Below, piece after piece: positions 2,372-44,945 of a stretch of DNA of 64,000 nucleotides (its first letter is position 1; every line of letters begins with the position of its first letter). The position numbers and the translations under genes are program-made. The stretch lies in assembly GCF_029227855.1 (NCBI RefSeq), contig NZ_CP074356.1. One strand, written 5' to 3'. Source of the stretch: Escherichia coli (lineage in GTDB: Bacteria > Pseudomonadota > Gammaproteobacteria > Enterobacterales > Enterobacteriaceae). The notes beneath the pieces are model-generated. The model was not told where the DNA came from. It saw only the letters and a program-made list of their open reading frames with translations, and did no database searches.

Positions 2372-4405
2372 TTATTTCACCTGATGACCCGGTTTAGCAC
2401 CGGCATCCGGGCTTAGCAGGAAAATATCTTTCCCGCCAGGACCGGCAGCCATCACCATGCCTTCGGAGATACCGAAGCGCATTTTACGTGGTGCCAGGTT
2501 AGCCACCATAATGGTGTGACGACCAATCAGTGCCTGCGGATCCGGGTAAGCAGAACGAATGCCGGAGAAGACATTGCGTTTTTCACCGCCGAGATCCAGC
2601 GTCAGGCGCAGCAGTTTGTCGGAACCTTCAACAAACTCTGCGTTTTCAATCAACGCCACGCGCAGGTCAACTTTGGCGAAGTCGTCAAAGGTGATGGTTT
2701 CCTGAATCGGATCATCTGCCAGTGGGCCAGTTACTGGCGCGGCAGTGGCTTTCACTTCTTCTTTAGAGGCTTCCACCAGTGCTTCAACCTGCTTCATGTC
2801 GATGCGGTTATACAGCGCTTTGAACGGATTCACTTTATGGCCCAACAGCGGTTGCTGGATACCATCCCAGGTCAGTTCCGTATTAAGGAATGCTTCTGCA
2901 CGCTCGGTCAGTTTCGGCAGTACCGGCTTCAGGTAAGTCATCAGCACGCGGAACAGGTTTATGCCCATCGAGCAAATTGCCTGCAGGTCGGCATCGCGGC
3001 CTTCCTGTTTTGCGACTACCCACGGAGCCTGTTCATCGACATAACGGTTAGCAAGATCAGCCAGCGCCATGATTTCGCGGATCGCTTTACCAAATTCGCG
3101 GCTTTCCCACGCTTCACCAATCACTTCAGCGGCATCAGTGAAGGTTTTGTACAGTTGCGGGTCAGCCAGTTCGCTTGCCAGCACACCGTCAAAACGCTTG
3201 TTGATAAAGCCCGCGTTACGGGAGGCCAGGTTAACCACTTTATTCACGATATCGGCATTCACACGCTGAACGAAATCTTCCAGGTTGAGATCGATATCAT
3301 CAATGCGCGAAGAGAGTTTCGCAGTGTAGTAGTAACGCAGGCTGTCGGCGTCAAAATGATTCAGCCAGGTGCTGGCCTTAATAAAGGTACCGCGAGACTT
3401 AGACATCTTCGCGCCGTTCACCGTCACATAGCCATGAACAAACAGGTTAGTCGGCTTGCGGAAGTTGCTGCCTTCCAGCATTGCTGGCCAGAACAGGCTG
3501 TGGAAGTAAACAATATCTTTGCCGATGAAGTGATACAGCTCGGCGGTGGAATCTTTCTTCCAGTATTCATCGAAGCTGGTGGTGTCGCCGCGTTTGTCGC
3601 ACAGATTCTTGAAGGAACCCATGTAGCCAATCGGCGCATCCAGCCAGACGTAGAAATATTTGCCCGGTGCGTTCGGAATTTCAAAACCGAAGTATGGCGC
3701 ATCGCGGGAGATATCCCACTGTTGCAGGCCAGATTCAAACCACTCCTGCATTTTGTTTGCCACTTGCTCCTGCAACGCGCCGCTGCGGGTCCATGCCTGC
3801 AACATTTCGCTGAAAGAGGGCAGATCAAAGAAGAAGTGTTCAGAATCACGCATTACCGGCGTAGCACCAGAAACCACCGATTTAGGCTCGATCAGCTCAG
3901 TCGGGCTGTAGGTCGCGCCACAAACTTCACAGTTATCGCCGTATTGATCCGGGGATTTACATTTCGGGCAGGTGCCTTTTACAAAACGGTCCGGCAGGAA
4001 CATGCCTTTTTCCGGATCGTACAGCTGAGAGATAGTGCGGTTTTTAATAAAACCGTTCTCTTTCAGGCGAGAATAAATAAGTTCTGACAACTGGCGGTTC
4101 TCTTCGCTGTGCGTCGAGTGATAGTTGTCATAGCTGATGTTAAAGCCTGCGAAATCAGTCTGATGCTCCTGACTCATTTCGCCAATCATCTGCTCCGGGG
4201 TGATACCAAGCTGCTGAGCTTTCAGCATGATCGGTGTGCCGTGGGCATCGTCGGCGCAAATGAAGTTGACCTCGTGGCCGCGCATTCGCTGGTAACGGAC
4301 CCAGACATCAGCCTGGATGTGCTCCAGCATATGGCCGAGGTGGATTGAGCCGTTAGCGTACGGCAGTGCGCACGTCACCAGAATTTTCTTCGCGACTTGA
4401 GTCAT
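2372..4405 (-). CDS. metG: Methionine--tRNA ligase
   Basis: 680-aa ORF with class I HLGH (HIGH) and KMSKS motifs; start placed at [12 protein letters not shown] to give 677 aa. Confidence 0.95.
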
Positions 4406-4536
4406 AGTAGGCATTACTTCTTAATAGTGAAAAGGGGTTAGATAGTACCAAATGGGAAAATGTTAAGTAAGTACTTCTCTATATTCTTCAGGTAAACTAT
4501 CAGCTGATGGTTTATCTATACAAAAAAGGAGTCGGG

Positions 4537-5646
4537 ATGAACGAACAATCCCAGGCCAAATCACCAGAAGCCTTGCGCGCAATGGTCGCCGGGACACTGG
4601 CCAATTTTCAGCACCCAACCCTGAAGCATAACCTCACCACGCTGAAAGCGTTGCACCATGTCGCCTGGATGGACGACACGTTGCATGTGGAACTGGTTAT
4701 GCCATTCGTCTGGCATAGCGCGTTCGAAGAGTTAAAAGAGCAATGTAGCGCCGAACTGCTGCGCATCACCGGGGCGAAAGCTATCGACTGGAAACTGTCG
4801 CACAATATCGCCACCTTAAAACGCGTGAAGAATCAGCCGGGAATTAACGGCGTGAAGAACATCATTGCGGTCAGCTCCGGTAAAGGCGGCGTGGGTAAAT
4901 CTTCCACGGCGGTAAACCTGGCGTTGGCACTCGCGGCGGAAGGGGCGAAAGTCGGCATTCTGGACGCCGATATCTACGGCCCATCAATCCCCACCATGCT
5001 GGGCGCAGAAAATCAGCGTCCAACTTCGCCGGACGGTACCCATATGGCACCGATTATGTCTCATGGACTGGCAACCAATTCAATTGGTTATCTGGTCACT
5101 GACGACAATGCGATGGTGTGGCGTGGTCCGATGGCGAGCAAGGCGTTAATGCAGATGTTGCAGGAAACCTTGTGGCCGGATCTCGACTATCTGGTGCTTG
5201 ATATGCCGCCAGGCACCGGTGACATTCAATTGACACTGGCACAAAACATTCCAGTAACTGGCGCGGTAGTGGTCACCACCCCGCAGGACATTGCGTTGAT
5301 CGATGCGAAAAAAGGCATTGTGATGTTCGAGAAAGTCGAGGTTCCGGTGCTCGGTATTGTCGAGAACATGAGTGTGCATATTTGCAGTAACTGTGGTCAC
5401 CATGAACCGATTTTCGGTACCGGTGGTGCTGAGAAACTGGCTGAAAAATACCACACACAGCTGCTGGGGCAGATGCCGTTACACATCTCCTTACGTGAGG
5501 ATCTCGATAAAGGCACGCCAACGGTTATCAGCCGTCCGGAGAGCGAATTTACCGCTATCTACCGCCAGCTGGCTGACCGCGTTGCAGCTCAGCTCTACTG
5601 GCAGGGTGAAGTCATTCCAGGCGAGATTTCCTTCCGCGCGGTCTAA
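4537..5646 (+). CDS. apbC: Fe-S cluster carrier ATPase Mrp/ApbC
   Basis: ORF 4507..5646; start placed at MNEQSQAK (369 aa); Walker A GKGGVGKSST and ParA/MinD-like fold motifs. Confidence 0.9.
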   Translation: MNEQSQAKSPEALRAMVAGTLANFQHPTLKHNLTTLKALHHVAWMDDTLHVELVMPFVWHSAFEELKEQCSAELLRITGAKAIDWKLSHNIATLKRVKNQPGINGVKNIIAVSSGKGGVGKSSTAVNLALALAAEGAKVGILDADIYGPSIPTMLGAENQRPTSPDGTHMAPIMSHGLATNSIGYLVTDDNAMVWRGPMASKALMQMLQETLWPDLDYLVLDMPPGTGDIQLTLAQNIPVTGAVVVTTPQDIALIDAKKGIVMFEKVEVPVLGIVENMSVHICSNCGHHEPIFGTGGAEKLAEKYHTQLLGQMPLHISLREDLDKGTPTVISRPESEFTAIYRQLADRVAAQLYWQGEVIPGEISFRAV

Positions 5647-5675
5647 CGCCTATTAACCATTCTGGTTATTCTTCA

Positions 5676-5717
5676 TACACCGCAGAGATGTTACATTGAT
5701 GCGGTGTATTTGTTTTT
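5676..5717 (+). terminator. Rho-independent terminator after apbC
   Basis: Inverted repeat tacaccgca (5676-5684) / tgcggtgta (5700-5708) followed by tttgttttt. Confidence 0.5.
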
Positions 5718-5908
5718 GCCGCATTAATGAACACTTATTTAATACTGCGAATATTCTGCGGACCTTCGTCCGAAACTCTACAAAGTCGATTGATCGTACA
5801 GGCAATGCTTCATTATCATCCTTCGTGGCTGTGTAGTGGATGTACAGCTATAGTTTGTTATGCACTCATTCTATCCAGGCATAACCTTTACTACAGGGAT
5901 AACGTTCA

Positions 5909-6190
5909 ATGAATAAGTATTGGCTGTCAGGAATTATTTTTCTTGCCTATGGATTGGCTTCTCCCGCATTCTCTTCAGAGACTGCCACATTAGCGATTAA
6001 TGGCAGGATCAGTCCCCCAACATGCAGTATGGCTATGGTTAATGGTCAACCTCAACAGCATTGTGGTCAGTTAACGTATGATGTTGATACCCGTCATCAG
6101 GTTTCTTCGCCAGTCAAAGGTGTAACGACAGAAGTGGTTGTTGCAGGTAGCGATAGCAAACGTCGAATCGTGTTAAATCGCTACGATTAA
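5909..6190 (+). CDS. yehE: Small secreted protein YehE (DUF2574-like)
   Basis: 93-aa ORF with N-terminal signal peptide (..AYGLASPAFSSE), located upstream of the yeh fimbrial operon. Confidence 0.6.
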   Translation: MNKYWLSGIIFLAYGLASPAFSSETATLAINGRISPPTCSMAMVNGQPQQHCGQLTYDVDTRHQVSSPVKGVTTEVVVAGSDSKRRIVLNRYD

Positions 6191-6486
6191 TTTGCCACCC
6201 TGGTTTTTTAATCGAATTTAGAAAGCTGAAATCATCCGTGTGAATGATTTCAGCTTTTTTATTGATATCAATAATACCATTTACAAAAATCTGCATTAAT
6301 TAATAGATGTGATAAATATTTAATATGCTTAAGTATTTGTTGTATTTATATTGCAATAGTTAATTTGTTTTAAATCAATAAAACAATATGTTTACATTGC
6401 TGCAACTTTTTTTTGATGTGAGAAATTTGTTTCCAAGAGATACAGACTCTTAACAACCAAAAATAAATTTTATTAAGGAACATATT

Positions 6487-7029
6487 ATGAAACGTTCAAT
6501 TATTGCTGCCGCTGTCTTTTCTTCTTTTTTTATGAGCGCTGGGGTATTTGCCGCAGACGTTGATACCGGAACATTAACCATTAAAGGGAATATTGCAGAA
6601 TCTCCGTGTAAATTCGAAGCGGGTGGCGATTCAGTAAGTATTAATATGCCAACTGTACCAACCACTGTCTTTGAAGGTAAAGCTAAATACTCGACCTATG
6701 ATGATGCAGTCGGTGTAACCAGCAGCATGTTAAAAATTAGCTGTCCGAAAGAAGTTGCTGGTGTAAAACTCTCGTTGATTACCAACGATAAAATAACCGG
6801 AAACGATAAGGCGATAGCCAGTAGCAACGATACCGTGGGGTACTATCTCTATTTAGGTGATAACAGCGATGTCCTGGATGTTTCTGCACCTTTTAACATT
6901 GAGAGTTATAAAACAGCGGAAGGTCAATATGCTATTCCGTTTAAAGCAAAATACCTGAAGCTGACAGATAATTCAGTGCAATCAGGTGATGTGTTATCTT
7001 CTCTGGTTATGCGTGTGGCGCAGGATTAA
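6487..7029 (+). CDS. yehD: Fimbrial major subunit (chaperone-usher pathway)
   Basis: 180-aa ORF, signal peptide (..SAGVFAADV), conserved Cys pair and size typical of type 1-like pilins; first gene of a subunit-chaperone-usher-adhesin array. Confidence 0.8.
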   Translation: MKRSIIAAAVFSSFFMSAGVFAADVDTGTLTIKGNIAESPCKFEAGGDSVSINMPTVPTTVFEGKAKYSTYDDAVGVTSSMLKISCPKEVAGVKLSLITNDKITGNDKAIASSNDTVGYYLYLGDNSDVLDVSAPFNIESYKTAEGQYAIPFKAKYLKLTDNSVQSGDVLSSLVMRVAQD

Positions 7030-24351: not shown

Positions 24352-25707
24352 ATGTTTTCAGAAGTCATGCGTTATATTCTCGACCTCGGCCCTACGGTGA
24401 TGCTGCCGATTGTCATCATTATTTTTTCTAAAATATTAGGCATGAAGGCAGGCGATTGCTTTAAAGCAGGTCTGCATATCGGGATTGGCTTTGTTGGCAT
24501 TGGCCTTGTGATTGGCTTAATGCTGGATTCCATTGGTCCGGCGGCGAAAGCGATGGCGGAAAATTTCGACCTGAATCTGCATGTGGTCGATGTCGGCTGG
24601 CCGGGCTCTTCACCAATGACCTGGGCGTCGCAAATTGCGCTGGTGGCGATTCCGATTGCGATTCTGGTTAACGTGGCGATGTTACTGACCCGTATGACGC
24701 GGGTGGTAAATGTTGATATCTGGAATATCTGGCATATGACCTTCACCGGCGCGTTGCTGCATCTGGCAACCGGTTCATGGATGATAGGGATGGCGGGTGT
24801 GGTAATTCACGCGGCGTTTGTTTATAAGCTCGGCGACTGGTTTGCCCGCGATACCCGAAATTTCTTTGAGCTGGAAGGCATTGCTATTCCGCACGGTACG
24901 TCGGCGTATCTGGGGCCAATTGCGGTGCTGGTCGATGCTATCATCGAGAAAATCCCAGGCGTTAACCGAATTAAATTTAGTGCCGATGATATTCAGCGCA
25001 AGTTTGGCCCATTTGGCGAACCTGTCACCGTGGGTTTTGTGATGGGGCTGATTATCGGCATCCTCGCGGGTTACGATGTCAAAGGTGTATTGCAGCTGGC
25101 GGTAAAGACGGCGGCAGTTATGCTGCTGATGCCGCGGGTGATTAAACCCATCATGGATGGTTTAACGCCCATCGCTAAGCAGGCCCGTAGTCGTTTACAG
25201 GCGAAGTTCGGCGGTCAGGAGTTCCTGATTTGCCTTGATCCGGCGTTGCTGCTGGGGCATACGGCGGTGGTATCGGCAAGCCTGATTTTTATCCCTCTCA
25301 CCATTTTAATTGCTGTTTGTGTTCCGGGTAATCAGGTGCTGCCGTTTGGCGATCTTGCAACTATCGGCTTCTTCGTGGCGATGGCGGTCGCGGTGCATCG
25401 TGGAAATCTGTTCCGCACCTTAATCTCGGGTGTCATCATTATGAGCATCACCCTGTGGATCGCGACGCAAACTATTGTTTTGCACACCCAACTGGCGGCT
25501 AATGCTGGGGCGTTAAAAGCCGGGGGTATGGTGGCTTCAATGGATCAGGGCGGTTCTCCCATTACCTGGTTACTGATTCAGGTTTTCTCCCCGCAAAATA
25601 TTCCCGGTTTCATTATTATCGGTGCCATTTATCTTACCGGTATTTTCATGACCTGGCGTAGAGCGCGCGGCTTTATTAAACAAGAGAAAGCCGTTCTCGC
25701 AGAATAA
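24352..25707 (+). CDS. gatC: PTS galactitol-specific EIIC permease
   Basis: 451-aa polytopic membrane protein. Confidence 0.9.
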   Translation: MFSEVMRYILDLGPTVMLPIVIIIFSKILGMKAGDCFKAGLHIGIGFVGIGLVIGLMLDSIGPAAKAMAENFDLNLHVVDVGWPGSSPMTWASQIALVAIPIAILVNVAMLLTRMTRVVNVDIWNIWHMTFTGALLHLATGSWMIGMAGVVIHAAFVYKLGDWFARDTRNFFELEGIAIPHGTSAYLGPIAVLVDAIIEKIPGVNRIKFSADDIQRKFGPFGEPVTVGFVMGLIIGILAGYDVKGVLQLAVKTAAVMLLMPRVIKPIMDGLTPIAKQARSRLQAKFGGQEFLICLDPALLLGHTAVVSASLIFIPLTILIAVCVPGNQVLPFGDLATIGFFVAMAVAVHRGNLFRTLISGVIIMSITLWIATQTIVLHTQLAANAGALKAGGMVASMDQGGSPITWLLIQVFSPQNIPGFIIIGAIYLTGIFMTWRRARGFIKQEKAVLAE

Positions 25708-27755: not shown

Positions 27756-28655
27756 TTAACGCAACAATGGGCAATCTGGTGGTAATCGACAACGCAACGC
27801 CGCCGGAAGTATTTCAATATGAAAGTTTTGTCCGCTCAACGGTTCGCCATCAAGATTAAAAGTGATTTCGTGTGGGGCTTGTATATCAAACCACGACGAA
27901 GCGCCTTCGATAATATTCGGGTTATCTTCGTCAGATTTTAATGTTGATACGAGAGCCGGAAGAATTTCATCGCCGGTAAAAATGCGCAGTTGCAGCAAGC
28001 CATCGTTAATTAACGCGTTCGGGCACAATTGCTGACCGCCACCGGCCTGACGCCCGTTACCAATACCAATGACCAGGGCGTCACCTTGCCAGTGAAAGTT
28101 TTCACCGCGGATCTCACAACGGTCCGGTTGCAGAGTATCCATGCGCATTAAGCCATGAATGATGTAAGAGACGCCACCCAGCGCGGCTTTTAATTTTTCC
28201 GGCGTTTCTGTGGTAATACGCGTCCCAAATCCGCCTGTCGCCATATTAATAAAACAGGTTTGTTTGTTGACCTGCGCCATATCTATCGCAATGGCGTCAC
28301 CGGCAATTGCCAGTTTCAGCGCCTTATCCAGTGCCTCAGGAATCCTTACACTGGTGGCAAAATCATTGGCGGTTCCTAATGGCAAAATTCCTAGCGCGGG
28401 TATGTCATCCCCCTCACACTGAATCAACGCCGTAGAAACTTCATTAATGGTGCCATCGCCACCACCGGCAATCACCGTTGCGACGCCCAACTTCCGGGCC
28501 TCCTCTACATATCGTGCGGCATCGCCTTTCTCCCAGGTGACCCGCACATGGATCGTCATTCCTTCCTCACGCAACAGCATAATTGCTTCGCGCAATGGTA
28601 AATTGTCAGTACTTTTGCCATTAAGAATCAGTAAGCTGGCGGGAAATTCTGCCAT
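27756..28655 (-). CDS. yegS: Lipid kinase YegS (diacylglycerol kinase catalytic domain family)
   Basis: 299-aa ORF with DAGK-type nucleotide-binding pattern (..[13 protein letters not shown]..). Confidence 0.85.
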
Positions 28656-29069
28656 GATCGTATGTGCCTTTATGATTGGTCTGTAGATAGTGTATAGCAG
28701 AAAAGAAAAGGTGGAGTCAGAACAGGATGAAAGTCGGAGGATAAAAAATCAGTTCAAGTATGGAGGATTCAGTGGTTACCACCAGGAGCTTGCAATGGGG
28801 ACAGTGAATGTTAACGGTAGCCACCGGTAAATTTCAAAAAAGAGCATATACCTAATATTCAACTAAACAGTGGCATCTTCAATATACTATTAAAAATATA
28901 TTAACCCCCCCATGGGGTTACCCGGAAGGGCCTCCGTGTATGTAATTCCTACTTATGTAGGAAATGTTGTACAGAACATTTATTATAATCCTATTCAATT
29001 ATAATAATCATGCCATTATTATATTTAAACACCAGAGCGTGTCGTTGGTATTTAATGGGGGAAGGTGAG

Positions 29070-29387
29070 ATGAAAAAGATAGCTGCTATATCATTAATTA
29101 GTATTTTTCTTATGTCTGGTTGTGCTGTGCATAATGATGAAACAAGTATCGGTAAATTTGGTCTTGCATATAAAAGTAATATTCAGCGTAAACTCGATAA
29201 CCAATACTACACCGAAGCCGAAGCTTCTTTAGCCAGGGGCAGAATTTCTGGTGCAGAAAATATAGTAAAAAATGATGCAGCTCATTTCTGTGTTACTCAG
29301 GGCAAAAAAATGCAGATAGTTGACCTGAAGACAGAAGGTGCAGGATTACATGGCGTCGCTCGTCTGACATTCAAATGTGGAGAGTGA
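29070..29387 (+). CDS. yegR: Small lipoprotein-like protein YegR
   Basis: ORF 29010..29387; start placed at MKKIAAISLISIFLMSGC (105 aa; lipobox LMSGC). Confidence 0.7.
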   Translation: MKKIAAISLISIFLMSGCAVHNDETSIGKFGLAYKSNIQRKLDNQYYTEAEASLARGRISGAENIVKNDAAHFCVTQGKKMQIVDLKTEGAGLHGVARLTFKCGE

Positions 29388-29557
29388 GAATATTTTTTGG
29401 TAAGCGTCAAACATGCGCGTTCTGATTGTGCGTAGCCGGAACCTGTACGAGCACGATGCCGTTAAGTGAAAGGCATCGTGCTATGAAGGGGGATTCTATC
29501 GATGTGGTCAATGGAAGACGGTCACCTGGGATCAATCCGTCTCTATGGTTTATGCAC

Positions 29558-29584
29558 AAAAAATAAGCCCGTGTAAGGGAGATT
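29558..29584. other. Phage P2-type attachment core (attB) overlapping the CyaR 3' end; appears unoccupied
   Basis: Sequence aaaaaataagcccgtgtaagggagatt equals the P2 att core as recalled from memory; no ogr/P2-like genes flank it here. Confidence 0.45.
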
Positions 29585-29644
29585 ACACAGGCTAAGGAGG
29601 TGGTTCCTGGTACAGCTAGCATTTTATGGGTTATGTTTTTCAGC
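29558..29644 (-). ncRNA. cyaR: CyaR (RyeE) Hfq-dependent small RNA
   Basis: Minus strand reads GCUGAAAAACAUAACCCAUAAAAUGCUAGCUGUACCAGGAACCACCUCCUUAGCCUGUGUAAUCUCCCUUACACGGGCUUAUUUUUU, matching the CyaR sequence as recalled, including the terminal hairpin and U-tail. Confidence 0.8.
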
Positions 29645-29728
29645 GAAACAGATGATAACCTTAATAAATGCAGCTGTATGTGATCGGTTTCTAAGAATTT
29701 TCCATCCGGGAAAAATAATCGAAATTAA

Positions 29729-31090
29729 TCACTTACCGTGGGGGTTACGCGTGGTTTCCCCGGAGAAATTACGCATCAGCAGCGCGTAATTTAGCTCAAG
29801 ATCCTGCGGCACCGGGATCCACACAGTATAACCATCGCCCGGTGCGACCGGCATTGCTTCGCCTTTGGCGTTTTCCATGTGCTCAAGGGTAAAGTTAATG
29901 TTCCCTTGCGGCGTCATCAGCTCAAGGCTGTCGCCAACGGAGAATTTATTTTTCACCGCTACCGCCGCGAGGTCGCCCTTGCGCTCACTGGTAAACTCAC
30001 CAACAAACTGCTGGCGGTCAGAAACTGAATAACCGTATTCGTAGTTCTGATAATCGTCGTGAGTATGACGACGCAGGAAACCTTCGGTATAGCCACGATG
30101 CGCCAGACCTTCCAGGGTTTCCAGCAGGCTGGTATCGAATGGTTTTCCCGCAGCTGCGTCATCGATAGCTTTACGGTAAACCTGCGCGGTGCGTGCGCAA
30201 TAGTAGAAAGATTTGGTACGGCCTTCGATTTTCAGCGAATGCACGCCCATTTTGGTCAGGCGTTCAACATGGGCGATGGCGCGCAGATCTTTCGAGTTCA
30301 TGATGTAAGTGCCGTGCTCATCTTCAAACGCGGTCATATACTCGCCCGGACGCTGGGCTTCTTCGATCATAAACACTTTGTCGGTTGGTGCGCCGATCCC
30401 CAGCGTCGGTTCAACGTTTTGCACCGGAATCGGTTCGTACTTGTGTACGATGTTGCCGACGTCATCTTCTTTCCCTTCCTGGACGTTATACTCCCAGCGG
30501 CAGGCGTTGGTGCAGGTGCCCTGGTTCGGGTCGCGCTTGTTGATATAGCCAGAGAGCAGGCAGCGACCGGAGTAGGCCATGCACAGCGCGCCGTGAACGA
30601 AGATTTCGATCTCCATATCTGGCACCTGATTGCGGATCTCTTCAATCTCTTCCAGTGACAGTTCGCGAGAGAGGATCACGCGGGTCAGACCCATTTGCTG
30701 CCAGAATTTCACCGTCGCCCAGTTCACGGCGTTAGCCTGTACTGAGAGATGGATCGGCATTTCAGGGAAGTGCTCGCGCACCAGCATAATCAGCCCTGGA
30801 TCAGACATAATCAGCGCATCCGGCCCCATTTCCACCACCGGTTTCAGGTCACGGATAAAGGTTTTCAGCTTGGCGTTGTGCGGTGCAATGTTGACCACGA
30901 CATAAAACTTTTTCCCCAGCGCGTGGGCTTCATTGATGCCGAGCTGAAGATTTTCGTGGTTGAATTCGTTGTTGCGCACACGCAGGGAGTAACGCGGCTG
31001 GCCCGCATAAACAGCATCTGCGCCATAAGCGAAAGCGTAACGCATATTTTTCAGCGTTCCCGCCGGGGAAAGGAGTTCCGGTTTAAACAT
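29729..31090 (-). CDS. yegQ: Peptidase U32-family protein (tRNA hydroxylation protein TrhP / YegQ)
   Basis: 453-aa ORF with U32-family conserved Cys-rich region. Confidence 0.85.
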   Translation of the reverse strand: MFKPELLSPAGTLKNMRYAFAYGADAVYAGQPRYSLRVRNNEFNHENLQLGINEAHALGKKFYVVVNIAPHNAKLKTFIRDLKPVVEMGPDALIMSDPGLIMLVREHFPEMPIHLSVQANAVNWATVKFWQQMGLTRVILSRELSLEEIEEIRNQVPDMEIEIFVHGALCMAYSGRCLLSGYINKRDPNQGTCTNACRWEYNVQEGKEDDVGNIVHKYEPIPVQNVEPTLGIGAPTDKVFMIEEAQRPGEYMTAFEDEHGTYIMNSKDLRAIAHVERLTKMGVHSLKIEGRTKSFYYCARTAQVYRKAIDDAAAGKPFDTSLLETLEGLAHRGYTEGFLRRHTHDDYQNYEYGYSVSDRQQFVGEFTSERKGDLAAVAVKNKFSVGDSLELMTPQGNINFTLEHMENAKGEAMPVAPGDGYTVWIPVPQDLELNYALLMRNFSGETTRNPHGK

Positions 31091-40575: not shown

Positions 40576-43500
40576 TTACGCCTCCTCTTCATGGCGAGCA
40601 AAGCGACTTTTGGTCCACAATGCCAGGCGGTCGAACAGCAGATAAATCACCGGCGTGGTGAACAGCGTCAGCACCTGGCTGACAATCAGACCGCCGACCA
40701 TGCCGATACCTAACGGACGACGCAGTTCCGCGCCGACCCCGGTACTCAACATCAGCGGCAGCGCGCCAAGCAGAGCCGCCAGAGTGGTCATCAGGATCGG
40801 ACGAAAACGTAACAGACAAGCCTGGTAGATTGCCTCGCGCGGCGACATGCCTTGCTCGCGCTCAGCAGCCAGCGCGAAGTCGATCATCATGATGGCGTTC
40901 TTCTTCACGATACCGATCAGCAAAATAATGCCGATAATCGCAATCACATCCAGCTCGCTACCGGCAATCAGTAACGCCAGCAGTGCGCCGACCCCTGCGG
41001 TGGGTAGCGTCGAGAGAATGGTGATCGGGTGAATAAAGCTCTCGTACAGAATGCCGAGCACGATATACATCGCCACCACCGCCGCGACAATCAGCCAGAC
41101 AGTGCTGCCCAACGCCGACTGGAAGGCGAGGGTGCTGCCCTGGAACTGCGTGGTGATATCCACCGGCAGATTCAGCGTCTTTTCGGTGTCCATAATCGCC
41201 TGCACCGCATCGCCCAGCGAATAGTTATCCGGCACGTTAAAGGAGATGGTCGTTACCGGGAACTGATCCAGATGGTTGATGGAAAGCGGCGCAAAACGCT
41301 GCTCAATTTTGGCAATTGAGCTTAACGGCACCACTCCACCGTCGCTGCTGGTCAGGCGAATGGTATCCAGCGCCGCGAGGCCTGGGGTATTTTCGGTGTT
41401 GTGTTCCAGCACCACGCGATACTGGTTAGCCTGAGTATAAATAGTGGAAATCAGCCGCTGACCAAACGCGTTGTACAGGGCGTTATCGACATCCGCCATG
41501 CTGATCCCCAGACGGCTGGCGCTGTCGCGATCAACATTGACATACGCCACCAGCCCTTTGTCCTGCCAGTCGCTGGAGACATCAGATAGCTGTGGCAGCT
41601 GCTGGAGTTTTTCCATCAACTGTGGCACCCAGGTACTGAGCGCATCCAGTGACGTGGCCTGCAAGGTAAACTGGTACTGGGTGCGGCTGACCTGAGTATC
41701 GATGGTCAGGTCCTGCGTTGGTTGCAGGAAGAGATCGACGCCCGGCACTTTATCCACCGCCGTTTGCAGACGGGCGATGACTTTTTGCACCCGATCATCA
41801 CGTTCATCCAGCGGTTTGAGGTTGATCTGCAAACGCGCACTGTTCAGCGACGGGTTAGTGCCATCAACGCCAACAAATGAGGTCAGACTTTGCACTGCCG
41901 GATCCTGCAAAATCACGTCCGCGACCTGGCGTTGCCGCTGGGCCATATTGGCAAAGGAGCTGGATTGCGGTGCCTGCAAAGTGCCCTGAATAATGCCGTT
42001 ATCCTGTACCGGGAAGAAACCTTTCGGAATGAACACCCACAACAGCACGCTAAGCAGCAGCGTGCTGAGTGCCACGCTTAAGGTCAGCCACGGATGATTC
42101 AGCACTTTCGCCAGTCCACGACCATAGGCGGCGATTATCCTGTCGAACATTTTCTCCGAGGCTCGGGAGAAGCGATTCTGTTTACGCAGCGACTCCTGGC
42201 TGAGCATCCGCGCGCACATCATCGGCGTCAGAGTCAGCGACACCACGGCTGAGATCAAAATTGCTACCGCCAGGGTAATGGCAAACTCGCGGAACAGTCG
42301 CCCGACGATATCGCCCATAAACAGTAGCGGGATCAGCACTGCAATCAGCGAGAAGGTCAGCGAGATAATGGTAAAACCGATTTCACCTGCGCCTTTGAGC
42401 GCCGCCGCCAGCGGTTTTTCGCCTTTTTCGATATAGCGCGAAATGTTCTCGATCACCACGATGGCGTCATCGACCACGAATCCGGTGGCGATAGTTAACG
42501 CCATCAGCGTCAGGTTATTGATCGAAAAATCGAGAAACACCATGACTGCGAAGGTGCCGATTAACGACAGCGGCACTGCGACGCCAGGAATAATGGTCGC
42601 CGGAATATTGCGCAAAAACAGGTAGATAATCATGACTACCAGCGCGATAGCCATCATCAGTTCAAACTGGGTATCGTCGACCGATGCGCGGATGTTGGTG
42701 GTGCGGTCAGAAAGCACCGTCACTTTTACCGATTTCGGCAAACTCTCGGTGAGTTGTGGCAGCATCTGCCGGATGCTGTCGGCGGTGGAGATAATGTTAG
42801 CACCGGGCTGGCGCTGAACATTCATCACAATGGCCTGTTCTTTGTTCGCCCACGCGCCGAGCCAGCTGTTTTCTGCTCCTTGCTCTACGGTTGCGACATC
42901 GCCCAGACGAATCGGCGCGCCGTTCTGGTAGGCGATGATCAGCTGGCGATACTCTTCGGCGGATTGCATCTGGTCGTTCGCGGAAAGTGTGACCGCACGG
43001 GAAGGGCCGTCGAGGCTACCTTTTGCCGAGTTAACGTTAGCGCCGGTAATAGCGGTGCGCACGGTTTCGCTGGTCAGGCCGAGGGCGGCAATCGCCTGGG
43101 CGTTAAGTTTGACGCGAACAGCCGGACGCTGGCCGCCGGAAAGCGTCACCAGGCCGACGCCGGAAATCTGCGAGATTTTTTGCGCGACGCGGGTTTCCAC
43201 CATATCTTCCACTTGCGTCATCGGCATGGCGGTTGAGGTGACAGCGAGCGTCATGATTGGCGGATCTGCCGGGTTCACTTTGCTGTAAACCGGCGGGTTA
43301 GGCAGATCGCTCGGTAGCAGGTTGGTCGCAGCGTTAATCGCGGCCTGCACTTCCTGCTCGGCGACATCCAGCGGTAATGTTAGCTGGAACTGCAAAGTGA
43401 TAACTGACGCACCGCCGGAACTTTGCGACGACATCTGTTTCAGGCCGGACATCTGCCCGAACTGGCGTTCGAGCGGCGCGGTAACGGCAGAGGTCATGAC

Positions 43501-43698
43501 ATCCGGGCTGGCACCTGGGTAGAGGGTGACCACCTGAATGGTTGGATAGTCCACTTCCGGCAGCGCCGAAACGGGCAGGGCACGATAACCGATAATCCCG
43601 GCGAGTAAGATCGCCACCATCAGCAGCGTGGTGGCGACAGGACGCATAATAAACAGGCGCGATGGGCCGCCTGTGCTGCTCGGGGGTAACACCTGCAT
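40576..43698 (-). CDS. mdtB: RND multidrug efflux permease MdtB
   Basis: 1040-aa AcrB-family ORF immediately upstream of mdtC. Confidence 0.95.
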
Positions 43699-44945
43699 CA
43701 GGAGCGTGCTCCTTTTTTCGCGTATTCGCGGCTGGTGGCTTTCTCTTCCGGAGTGGTGGCGCTCTGGGCTTCCACTACTTCCACTTTCGCCCCTTCGGTC
43801 AGGCGATCAATGCCGTCTGTCACTACGCGGTCGCCCGCAGAAATACCTGCGCGGATCACCACTTTCTGACTGTCCTGAATGCCCGGCGTCACCAGATGTT
43901 TGCTGACCTTGTTTTCGCTATTCAGCACCCAGACAAAATGGCCTTCATTGCCCATTTGCAGGGCGGCGGTGGGGATCACCACGGCGTTTTGTTCGGTGTC
44001 GACTAACATACGCGCGTTAACAAACTGATTGGGAAACAGTGCATCATCCTGATTATTAAAGCGTGCTTTCACTTTAATCGTACCGGTAGTGGCATCGATT
44101 TGGTTATCGAGGCTTAACAGCGTGCCTTCACTTAATTTCTTCGAGTTGGTGCGATCCCAGGCTTCAACAACCAGCGGTTTTCCGGCTTTTTGCGCCTGTA
44201 CTACGGTAGCGATATCGCTTTCCGGCAGGGTAAAGACTAAATCGATAGGGTGCGTCTGGGTGATCACCACAATCCCGGTGGTATCACCACTGGAGATTTG
44301 GTTACCAACATCAACCTGCTTGAGACCAACGCGACCATCGACTGGTGCGGTGATGCGGCTCCAGTCGAGTTGCAGCTGCGCGCTGGCGACGCTTGCTTCA
44401 TCAGCCTTAATGGTGCCTTCGGTTTCACTGACCAGCGCCTGTTGGGCATCCAGCTCCTGACGAGATACGAGATTGGTTTTTACCAGTTGTTGATAACGCG
44501 CCAGGTCACGGCGGGCGTTGGCAAGCGTGGCTTTATCTTTTGCCAGTTGGCCCTGGGCTTGTGCTAATGCAACTTTGAACTGGCTTGGGTCAATTTCTGC
44601 CAGTAAATCGCCTGCTTTGACCTGCTGGCCTTCCTGGAAATGTAACGCTATCAGTTGGCCGTCCACGCGGCTGCGCACCGTAACGGTATTAGCGGCGGTA
44701 ATGGTGCCAAGCCCGGTGAGGTAACGCGGAACTGCCTGTTCTACGGCGGTCGCCGCCTGAACCGGGGCTAATGGGCCGGAACGCATACCACGGCGACCAC
44801 CCGCTGGCGATTGCTGCGCTTGTTTCGTCGCCCCTGGGGCTGCACTCCGGGAGTCATTGCGGCCTTGCCAGAACCAGAATGCGGCGATGGCGGCGATAAC
44901 CACCACGATTACGATTACCCAACGGGATTTATAACTGCCTTTCAT
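43698..44945 (-). CDS. mdtA: RND efflux membrane fusion protein MdtA
   Basis: ORF 43698..45092; start placed at [16 protein letters not shown] (415 aa). Confidence 0.9.

Follow-up and report, generated by a model that had tools for sequence, protein, structure and literature searches.

The window, by which we mean the whole 64-kb stretch of DNA that was analysed, is a piece of E. coli chromosome: its positions 28700-29800 were 100% identical to E. coli strain E300010, and the same segment found a match in 5,423 of the 5,426 complete E. coli genomes. The genes of this region are arranged in the order gatYZABCD-gatR, yegS (minus strand), yegR (plus strand), cyaR, yegQ/trhP (minus strand), yegP, baeRS and mdtDCBA (Table 1). 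Positions 29388-29728 correspond to the whole intergenic interval between the stop codons of yegR and yegQ, in which 170 bp separate the end of yegR from an attachment core at the 3' end of cyaR. The gene for the small RNA CyaR, which the sequence-only reading had recognized on the minus strand, was confirmed by Rfam: RF00112 matched at 29561-29646 (minus strand) with 100.7 bits compared to a gathering score of 47 (E = 1.9e-19), the covariance model was covered over its full length (positions 1-85 of 85), and the 87-nt transcript has the same sequence as at the K-12-type locus (ER1709). Synteny of cyaR and yegQ was kept across about 116 species loci among the cyaR loci listed. Upstream of cyaR, a pattern match revealed a CRP-like site with two mismatches to TGTGA-N6-TCACA. 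Control of cyaR by CRP has been published, as is cited in PMC3333887, and in analogy to this regulation the site TTAGAAACCGATCACA is a candidate for the element through which CRP acts on cyaR in the window.

Several further features of the surroundings deserve mention. An open reading frame for 71 aa at 29407-29622 (minus strand), which overlaps cyaR, was rejected as spurious, because it crosses both the sRNA gene and the phage arm relic described below and is unannotated in the identical genome of E300010. The sequence-only reading had also placed an unassigned insert next to the site. No such insert was identified, as the whole window was collinear with annotated backbone genes, and the sole non-ancestral block near the site is the yegR block. 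In strains DETEC-S565, VTB96775v and isolateD, a RelE/ParE-ParD toxin-antitoxin pair is located downstream of yegQ, where yegP is found in the window and in most strains. At a larger distance from cyaR, at about 43011-43727, the annotation of E300010 places three tandem genes for type I toxins of the Ibs family between mdtA and yegL.

Table 1. Features of the yegS-yegR-cyaR-yegQ region, with positions numbered from the first nucleotide of the 64-kb window.
Feature	Position	Strand	Basis or remark
yegS, lipid kinase	27756..28655	-	ancestral neighbour of cyaR
Degenerate second att core, 19/27	28743..28769	+	left edge of yegR block
yegR block, 0.81 kb	about 28749..29557	.	absent from yegR-less Escherichia and most other genera
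P'-arm-like relic	28770..28835	+	similarity to P2 P' arm
yegR, 105-aa predicted lipoprotein	29070..29387	+	annotated in identical genome E300010; only gene in block
Perfect 11-bp hairpin downstream of yegR, no T-run	29450..29482	+	RNAfold, -20.1 kcal/mol
Putative decayed P2 P-arm relic (chromosomal 'B arm')	29499..29557	+	BLAST to P2
P2-type attB core (presumably locI type), 27 bp	29558..29584	.	CyaR nt 61-87
cyaR (ryeE) sRNA gene, 87 nt	29558..29644	-	Rfam RF00112
CyaR intrinsic terminator hairpin, 11-bp stem followed by U-run	29566..29593	-	terminator scan, Rfam structure line, RNAfold
-10-like TATCAT of cyaR	29652..29657	-	sequence pattern
CRP-like site TTAGAAACCGATCACA	29679..29694	-	centre near -42 of cyaR
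yegQ/trhP, neighbour upstream of cyaR	29729..31090	-	

The last 27 bp of cyaR, AAAAAATAAGCCCGTGTAAGGGAGATT, were identical at 27 of 27 positions to nucleotides 24356-24382 of the phage P2 genome (AF063097), which are annotated in that record as 'attP' and 'Int attP core' and are flanked by Int P arm, IHF, Cox and P' arm sites. The presence of the P2 att core at the 3' end of CyaR, which the sequence-only reading had proposed, is thus established, and the exact 27-mer together with the Rfam E-value is far beyond chance. Within the RNA, the core takes in only the loop, the 3' stem and the U-tail of the terminator, while the 5' stem (29585-29593) is made of chromosomal B' sequence. As the core lies inside a conserved RNA gene, the match might in principle reflect mere conservation of the cyaR terminator at a site that is not used by phages. 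This explanation is almost certainly wrong, since the P2 record annotates the very same 27-mer as attP and prophages in other genomes sit exactly at it, flanked on each side by a copy of the core. In the window, the 27-mer is present as a single copy even when up to seven mismatches are allowed, and none of the genes int, C, cox, D and ogr was found between the flanking genes, indicating that the site is unoccupied. Judged from these features, the site is empty and could probably be used by P2 as attB. We take it to represent the classical 'locI' type of P2 attachment site. locI is a P2 site of E. coli C, and K-12 uses secondary P2 sites.

To describe the state of the site in the species, a 1,001-bp segment with the core at its centre was compared to complete E. 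coli genomes. The site was contiguous within 1 kb in 4,564 of 5,423 genomes, a class that also includes K-12-type remnants (4 of 60 evenly spread rows), and was split exactly at the core in 859 genomes (15.8%), with query pieces 1-514, 488-1001 or 429-1001. The evenly spread sample contained ten split genomes, and all ten carried a P2-like prophage at the junction, recognizable by D and ogr adjoining cyaR or by int, in part together with C, adjoining yegR. The gap in JNE25-003 consists of a complete P2-like prophage with the core 27-mer at both ends, and the order of genes is yegR, integrase, C-like repressor, cox, structural genes, D, ogr and cyaR. The view that the locus is a live integration hotspot is well supported by these numbers. 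It is also in agreement with the literature, as 'cyaR RNA' is listed as an insertion site of large mobile elements, with the entries Wphi2 (P2) for strain W, ogr-D' for K-12, P2*B for strain B and no element for Crooks (PMC3032704, Table 2). Both the observation and the idea of a hotspot are therefore already known biology, and an empty cyaR site is the commonest and a documented state of the locus. Since the window has this common empty form, the strain can probably be lysogenized there with cyaR remaining unharmed.

During integration, P2 Int, which is a tyrosine recombinase, and host IHF would recombine attP with attB by strand exchange at the 27-bp core that both have in common (PMC3448106, PMC3936717, annotation of AF063097). 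The terminator loop, 3' stem and U-tail of CyaR are contained in the phage core, and cyaR would therefore be rebuilt without any change at the attR junction (P-core-B'). A prophage located between yegR and cyaR would be oriented with int towards yegR and D-ogr towards cyaR. Excision by Int, IHF and Cox would be scarless (PMC3448106, PMC3936717), with the consequence that the sequence cannot tell an excised prophage from a site that was never occupied. It is conceivable that the empty state of the window goes back to a recent clean excision of a P2-like prophage by Int and Cox in this lineage, rather than to a lineage free of lysogeny since its split from K-12, which would be compatible with the older integrations that we propose below. 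The occupancy of 16% in the species implies frequent gain and loss, and the sequence fits a scarless event. However, we consider a recent excision unlikely, because the only identical genome, E300010, is likewise empty and because the B-arm allele of the window is a minority allele that was present in 146 of 5,426 genomes, whereas the B arms of three lysogen attL sites that were inspected (JNE25-003, vB_EcoM-720R8 and the K-12 type) all lacked it. Additionally, P2 lysogens are non-inducible and rarely excise, which also speaks against this explanation.

Between yegR and cyaR, the K-12-type locus (ER1709) carries ogrK and a pseudogene annotated as 'phage late control D'. Alignment with the window and with P2 showed that the left core of this remnant is cut after about 19 nt and fused to D', and that ogr with its terminator, an undamaged P arm and the complete core come next. 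The window is devoid of this K-12 segment of approximately 620 bp with D' and ogrK. In tblastx searches with 28656-29560 against a complete P2-like prophage, nothing was obtained below an E-value of 0.05, and tblastx and blastn of this segment against the prophage and P2 D-ogr-int did not reveal a coding remnant. The sequence-only reading was hence right in stating that ogrK and yegZ are missing and that yegR directly adjoins the site. It had offered two explanations for this, an ancestral empty site or a clean excision; the site is indeed empty relative to K-12, but it is not ancestral, because the comparison to lineages without yegR identifies the yegR block as derived.

In strain E69, E. 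whittamii and Escherichia sp. E1V33, whose YegS proteins share 93-95% identity with YegS of the window, BLAST alignments joined the equivalent of window position 28748 directly to that of 29558. A scan of species representatives with a cyaR pattern yielded at least 120 loci, about 116 of them with a genuine cyaR, in a sample that did not include E. fergusonii. The yegS start codon was at most 150 bp away from the core in 59 of the about 116 cyaR loci listed, and the genera with such a close yegS include Klebsiella, Enterobacter, Kosakonia, Cedecea, Atlantibacter and Raoultella. The direct connection of yegS to the core in lineages lacking yegR indicates that the approximately 0.81 kb present in the window are a derived insertion at the core. 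The GC content of the yegR block (0.33-0.39 at 28800-29400) differs from that of yegS and yegQ (0.50-0.57). Within the AT-rich spacer between yegS and yegR, which is part of the inserted block, a terminator-like hairpin TAACCCCATGGGGGGGTTA followed by a T-run is found at 28902-28920 on the minus strand, with no gene assigned.

Positions 28743-28769, at the left edge of the block, resemble the core more closely than any other sequence on either strand of the window except the core itself, and they are situated where Escherichia strains without yegR carry the real core. The left edge aligned to the core and P' arm of P2 with a moderate identity of 59% over 88 nt (z = 4.7), a score that was reached by 6 of 3000 shuffles (p about 0.002) and by 1 of 747 genomic control windows. 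The first 10 nt of this similarity are expected under any insertion into the core. At the same position, attL of E. albertii is 86% identical to P2, and the corresponding sequence of MOD1-EC7003 is 64% identical. The yegS-cyaR interval of Escherichia albertii NBRC 107761 is approximately 3.4 kb long (3440-6900, oriented) and has no yegR. Besides the attL with 86% identity to P2, it contains int-like remnants and a P-arm-like right end, and it represents an independent P2-like remnant.

For the right edge of the block, 29388-29590 was compared to phages by BLAST. Positions 29499-29584 aligned to nucleotides 24293-24382 of P2 with 78% identity (E = 2e-6), a segment in which P2 has its annotated Int P-arm sites, IHF site and core, and the score of the arm alone was reached by none of 2000 dinucleotide shuffles. 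The first Int arm-type repeat of the B arm, TCGATGTGGTCAATG, is intact and the same as in P2, whereas both the second repeat and the IHF region have degenerated. In the alignment, decay increases from the P arm of P2 over Escherichia sp. MOD1-EC7003 and the window to the common E. coli allele, from which another 13 bp are missing relative to the window. The longer allele of the window (29532-29557), which is also found in PCN033, for example, retains more IHF-region-like sequence than the common one. The P-arm relic is also present to the left of the K-12 remnant and in lysogen attL sites, indicating that it is older than those integrations and was no bar to them. Intact or decayed P arms adjoin cyaR in at least 13 other species loci among the loci listed. 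The statement that the interval between yegR and yegQ is free of phage gene remnants and of a second att copy thus holds for genes and for a second core, but the non-coding P-arm relic lies in this interval. The search for partial att duplications in 29388-29560 that had been proposed accordingly returned the P-arm relic and no second core at up to seven mismatches.

The hairpin downstream of yegR occupies the position that the ogr terminator has in alignments with P2, and it may be either a terminator of yegR or a relic. In 9 of 60 evenly spread rows (approximately 15%), including CFT073, about 169 bp of additional AT-rich sequence directly follow the yegR stop codon (at 29392/29393). This segment, which is absent from the window and from K-12, is possibly more of the decaying block. 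A variable flank at the 3' side of cyaR is also found in Salmonella enterica subsp. diarizonae, where approximately 2.9 kb separate yegS and cyaR and a degenerate P-arm-like motif is located at the core. The contig JAIJJM010000051.1, designated 'MAG: Collinsella sp.', has a cyaR of the E. coli type that is accompanied by an intact P2 P arm and an ogr terminator, and is probably mis-binned enterobacterial DNA.

These data can be used to judge whether the site is a pristine ancestral attB that was never occupied, in which case the similarity of the arms to P2 would be a coincidence or would be due to host sequence that phages copied by imprecise excision. The block is without phage genes, YegR was not found in phages and the similarity at the left edge is modest, all of which would fit a pristine site. 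Nevertheless, we regard it as very improbable. In yegR-less Escherichia and in most genera listed, yegS lies within about 80 bp of the core and the spacer is conserved. The similarity to the P arm is significant and spans annotated Int and IHF sites, and the arm is kept in P2-like prophages of Citrobacter and Buttiauxella, marking it as a phage feature. The chromosomal arm, in contrast, is a degenerate copy with a mutated second repeat and, in most alleles, a 13-bp deletion.

The origin of yegR is less evident from comparisons of the gene itself. Homologues of YegR are almost confined to E. coli and Shigella, and the few distant ones are located in an island rich in IS and Tn3 genes or at an unrelated chromosomal locus, none of them in P2 prophages. 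A search of 50,697 phage records with the YegR protein and with the DNA of 28735-29075 produced matches to ON470606 and AY639599 only, and neither is a genuine phage source of the gene. The annotation of ON470606.1 names the host genes gatR, yegS and yegR, identifying it as a prophage excerpt, and AY639599.1 spans the same host interval with yegR, the B arm and cyaR, which is unannotated there. Records with host flanks such as these two can give rise to false phage matches for chromosomal genes. A Pfam scan of YegR gave no family above threshold, and the precomputed family PF27694 'YegR' offers no clue to function.

The yegR block might have arrived by a route that does not involve P2, for example with another integrative element or by illegitimate recombination, and only the 59-bp P-arm relic would stem from a later P2-like prophage that was almost wholly deleted, in a process similar to that in K-12 but more advanced. 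This alternative agrees with the location of YegR homologues next to IS/Tn3 genes or alone at other chromosomal loci and with the weakness of the left relic. We nevertheless think it doubtful, because the left boundary of the block coincides with the position of the core and is followed by core-like and then P'-like sequence in the correct order and orientation, and because E. albertii and MOD1-EC7003 provide graded intermediates at this edge. The arrangement of a decayed core with a P'-like arm on the left and a decayed P arm abutting the functional core on the right suggests instead that the yegR block, from yegS to the core, is probably what one or several earlier P2-type integrations left behind at this core. 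The P-arm relic on the right and the relic on the left could derive from separate events. We infer that yegR itself may be of phage origin. The difference between the two cores can be explained by cyaR: the right-hand copy was kept perfect because it is part of the gene, whereas the left copy decayed because it was free of this constraint.

Taken together, we assign a probability of roughly 0.8 to the reading, derived from sequence comparisons, that the last 27 bp of cyaR double as an intact, single-copy and unoccupied attB for phages of the P2 family. That the adjacent yegR block is what is left of older P2-type elements is probable as well, though somewhat less certain. If this is correct, the 'empty' site of the textbooks is no untouched target but the end of a stack, in which the yegR block was followed by the ogr-D' remnant of K-12 on top. 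The 'attB' sequences used in work on P2 recombination may then contain phage-derived arm sequence, and the 3' ends of sRNA genes may act as long-lived landing pads that gather orphan genes. One could go further and view the 'empty' P2 attB of E. coli as an attR-like fossil, with yegR having been brought in by an ancient P2-type element and with TCGATGTGGTCAATG as a possible binding site for Int. P2 and all the aligned B-arm alleles of Escherichia have the repeat TCGATGTGGTCAATG in identical form. This extended version is speculative and in our opinion rather improbable, but if true, the B-arm TCGATGTGGTCAATG may help to make cyaR the preferred P2 site or may bias excision. In the searchable literature, we found no description of the layered relics or of a link between yegR and a prophage. 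The layered-relic detail is a small addition, and the rest of the biology of the cyaR site is already documented.

The closest known system is the primary P2 site of E. coli (locI type), which occupies the 3' end of cyaR/ryeE. The locus agrees with it in the identical 27-bp core, in the position between yegR and yegQ and in the orientation of the prophage, and the empty state of the window is the one listed for strain Crooks (PMC3032704). Nothing essential differs from this site, except that the window carries the minority allele of the B arm, which is 13 bp longer. With the cryptic P2 remnant of K-12 (ogrK and yegZ/D'), the window shares the locus, the yegR block, the P-arm-like B arm, the right-hand core and cyaR, whereas the additional 620 bp or so of K-12, in which the truncated left core is fused to the D fragment and followed by ogrK with its terminator and by an intact P arm, are missing from the window. 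More generally, cyaR resembles other small RNA and tRNA genes into whose 3' ends phages integrate, such as the rybB, ssrA and sdsR loci: the 3' end of the RNA gene is part of the phage att core and is restored upon integration. Such loci gather successive insertions and remnants, as is described for other sRNA loci in Table 2 of PMC3032704 and in PMC3333887. Compared to these loci, the layers at cyaR in the window are worn down to non-coding arm relics and a single orphan lipoprotein gene.
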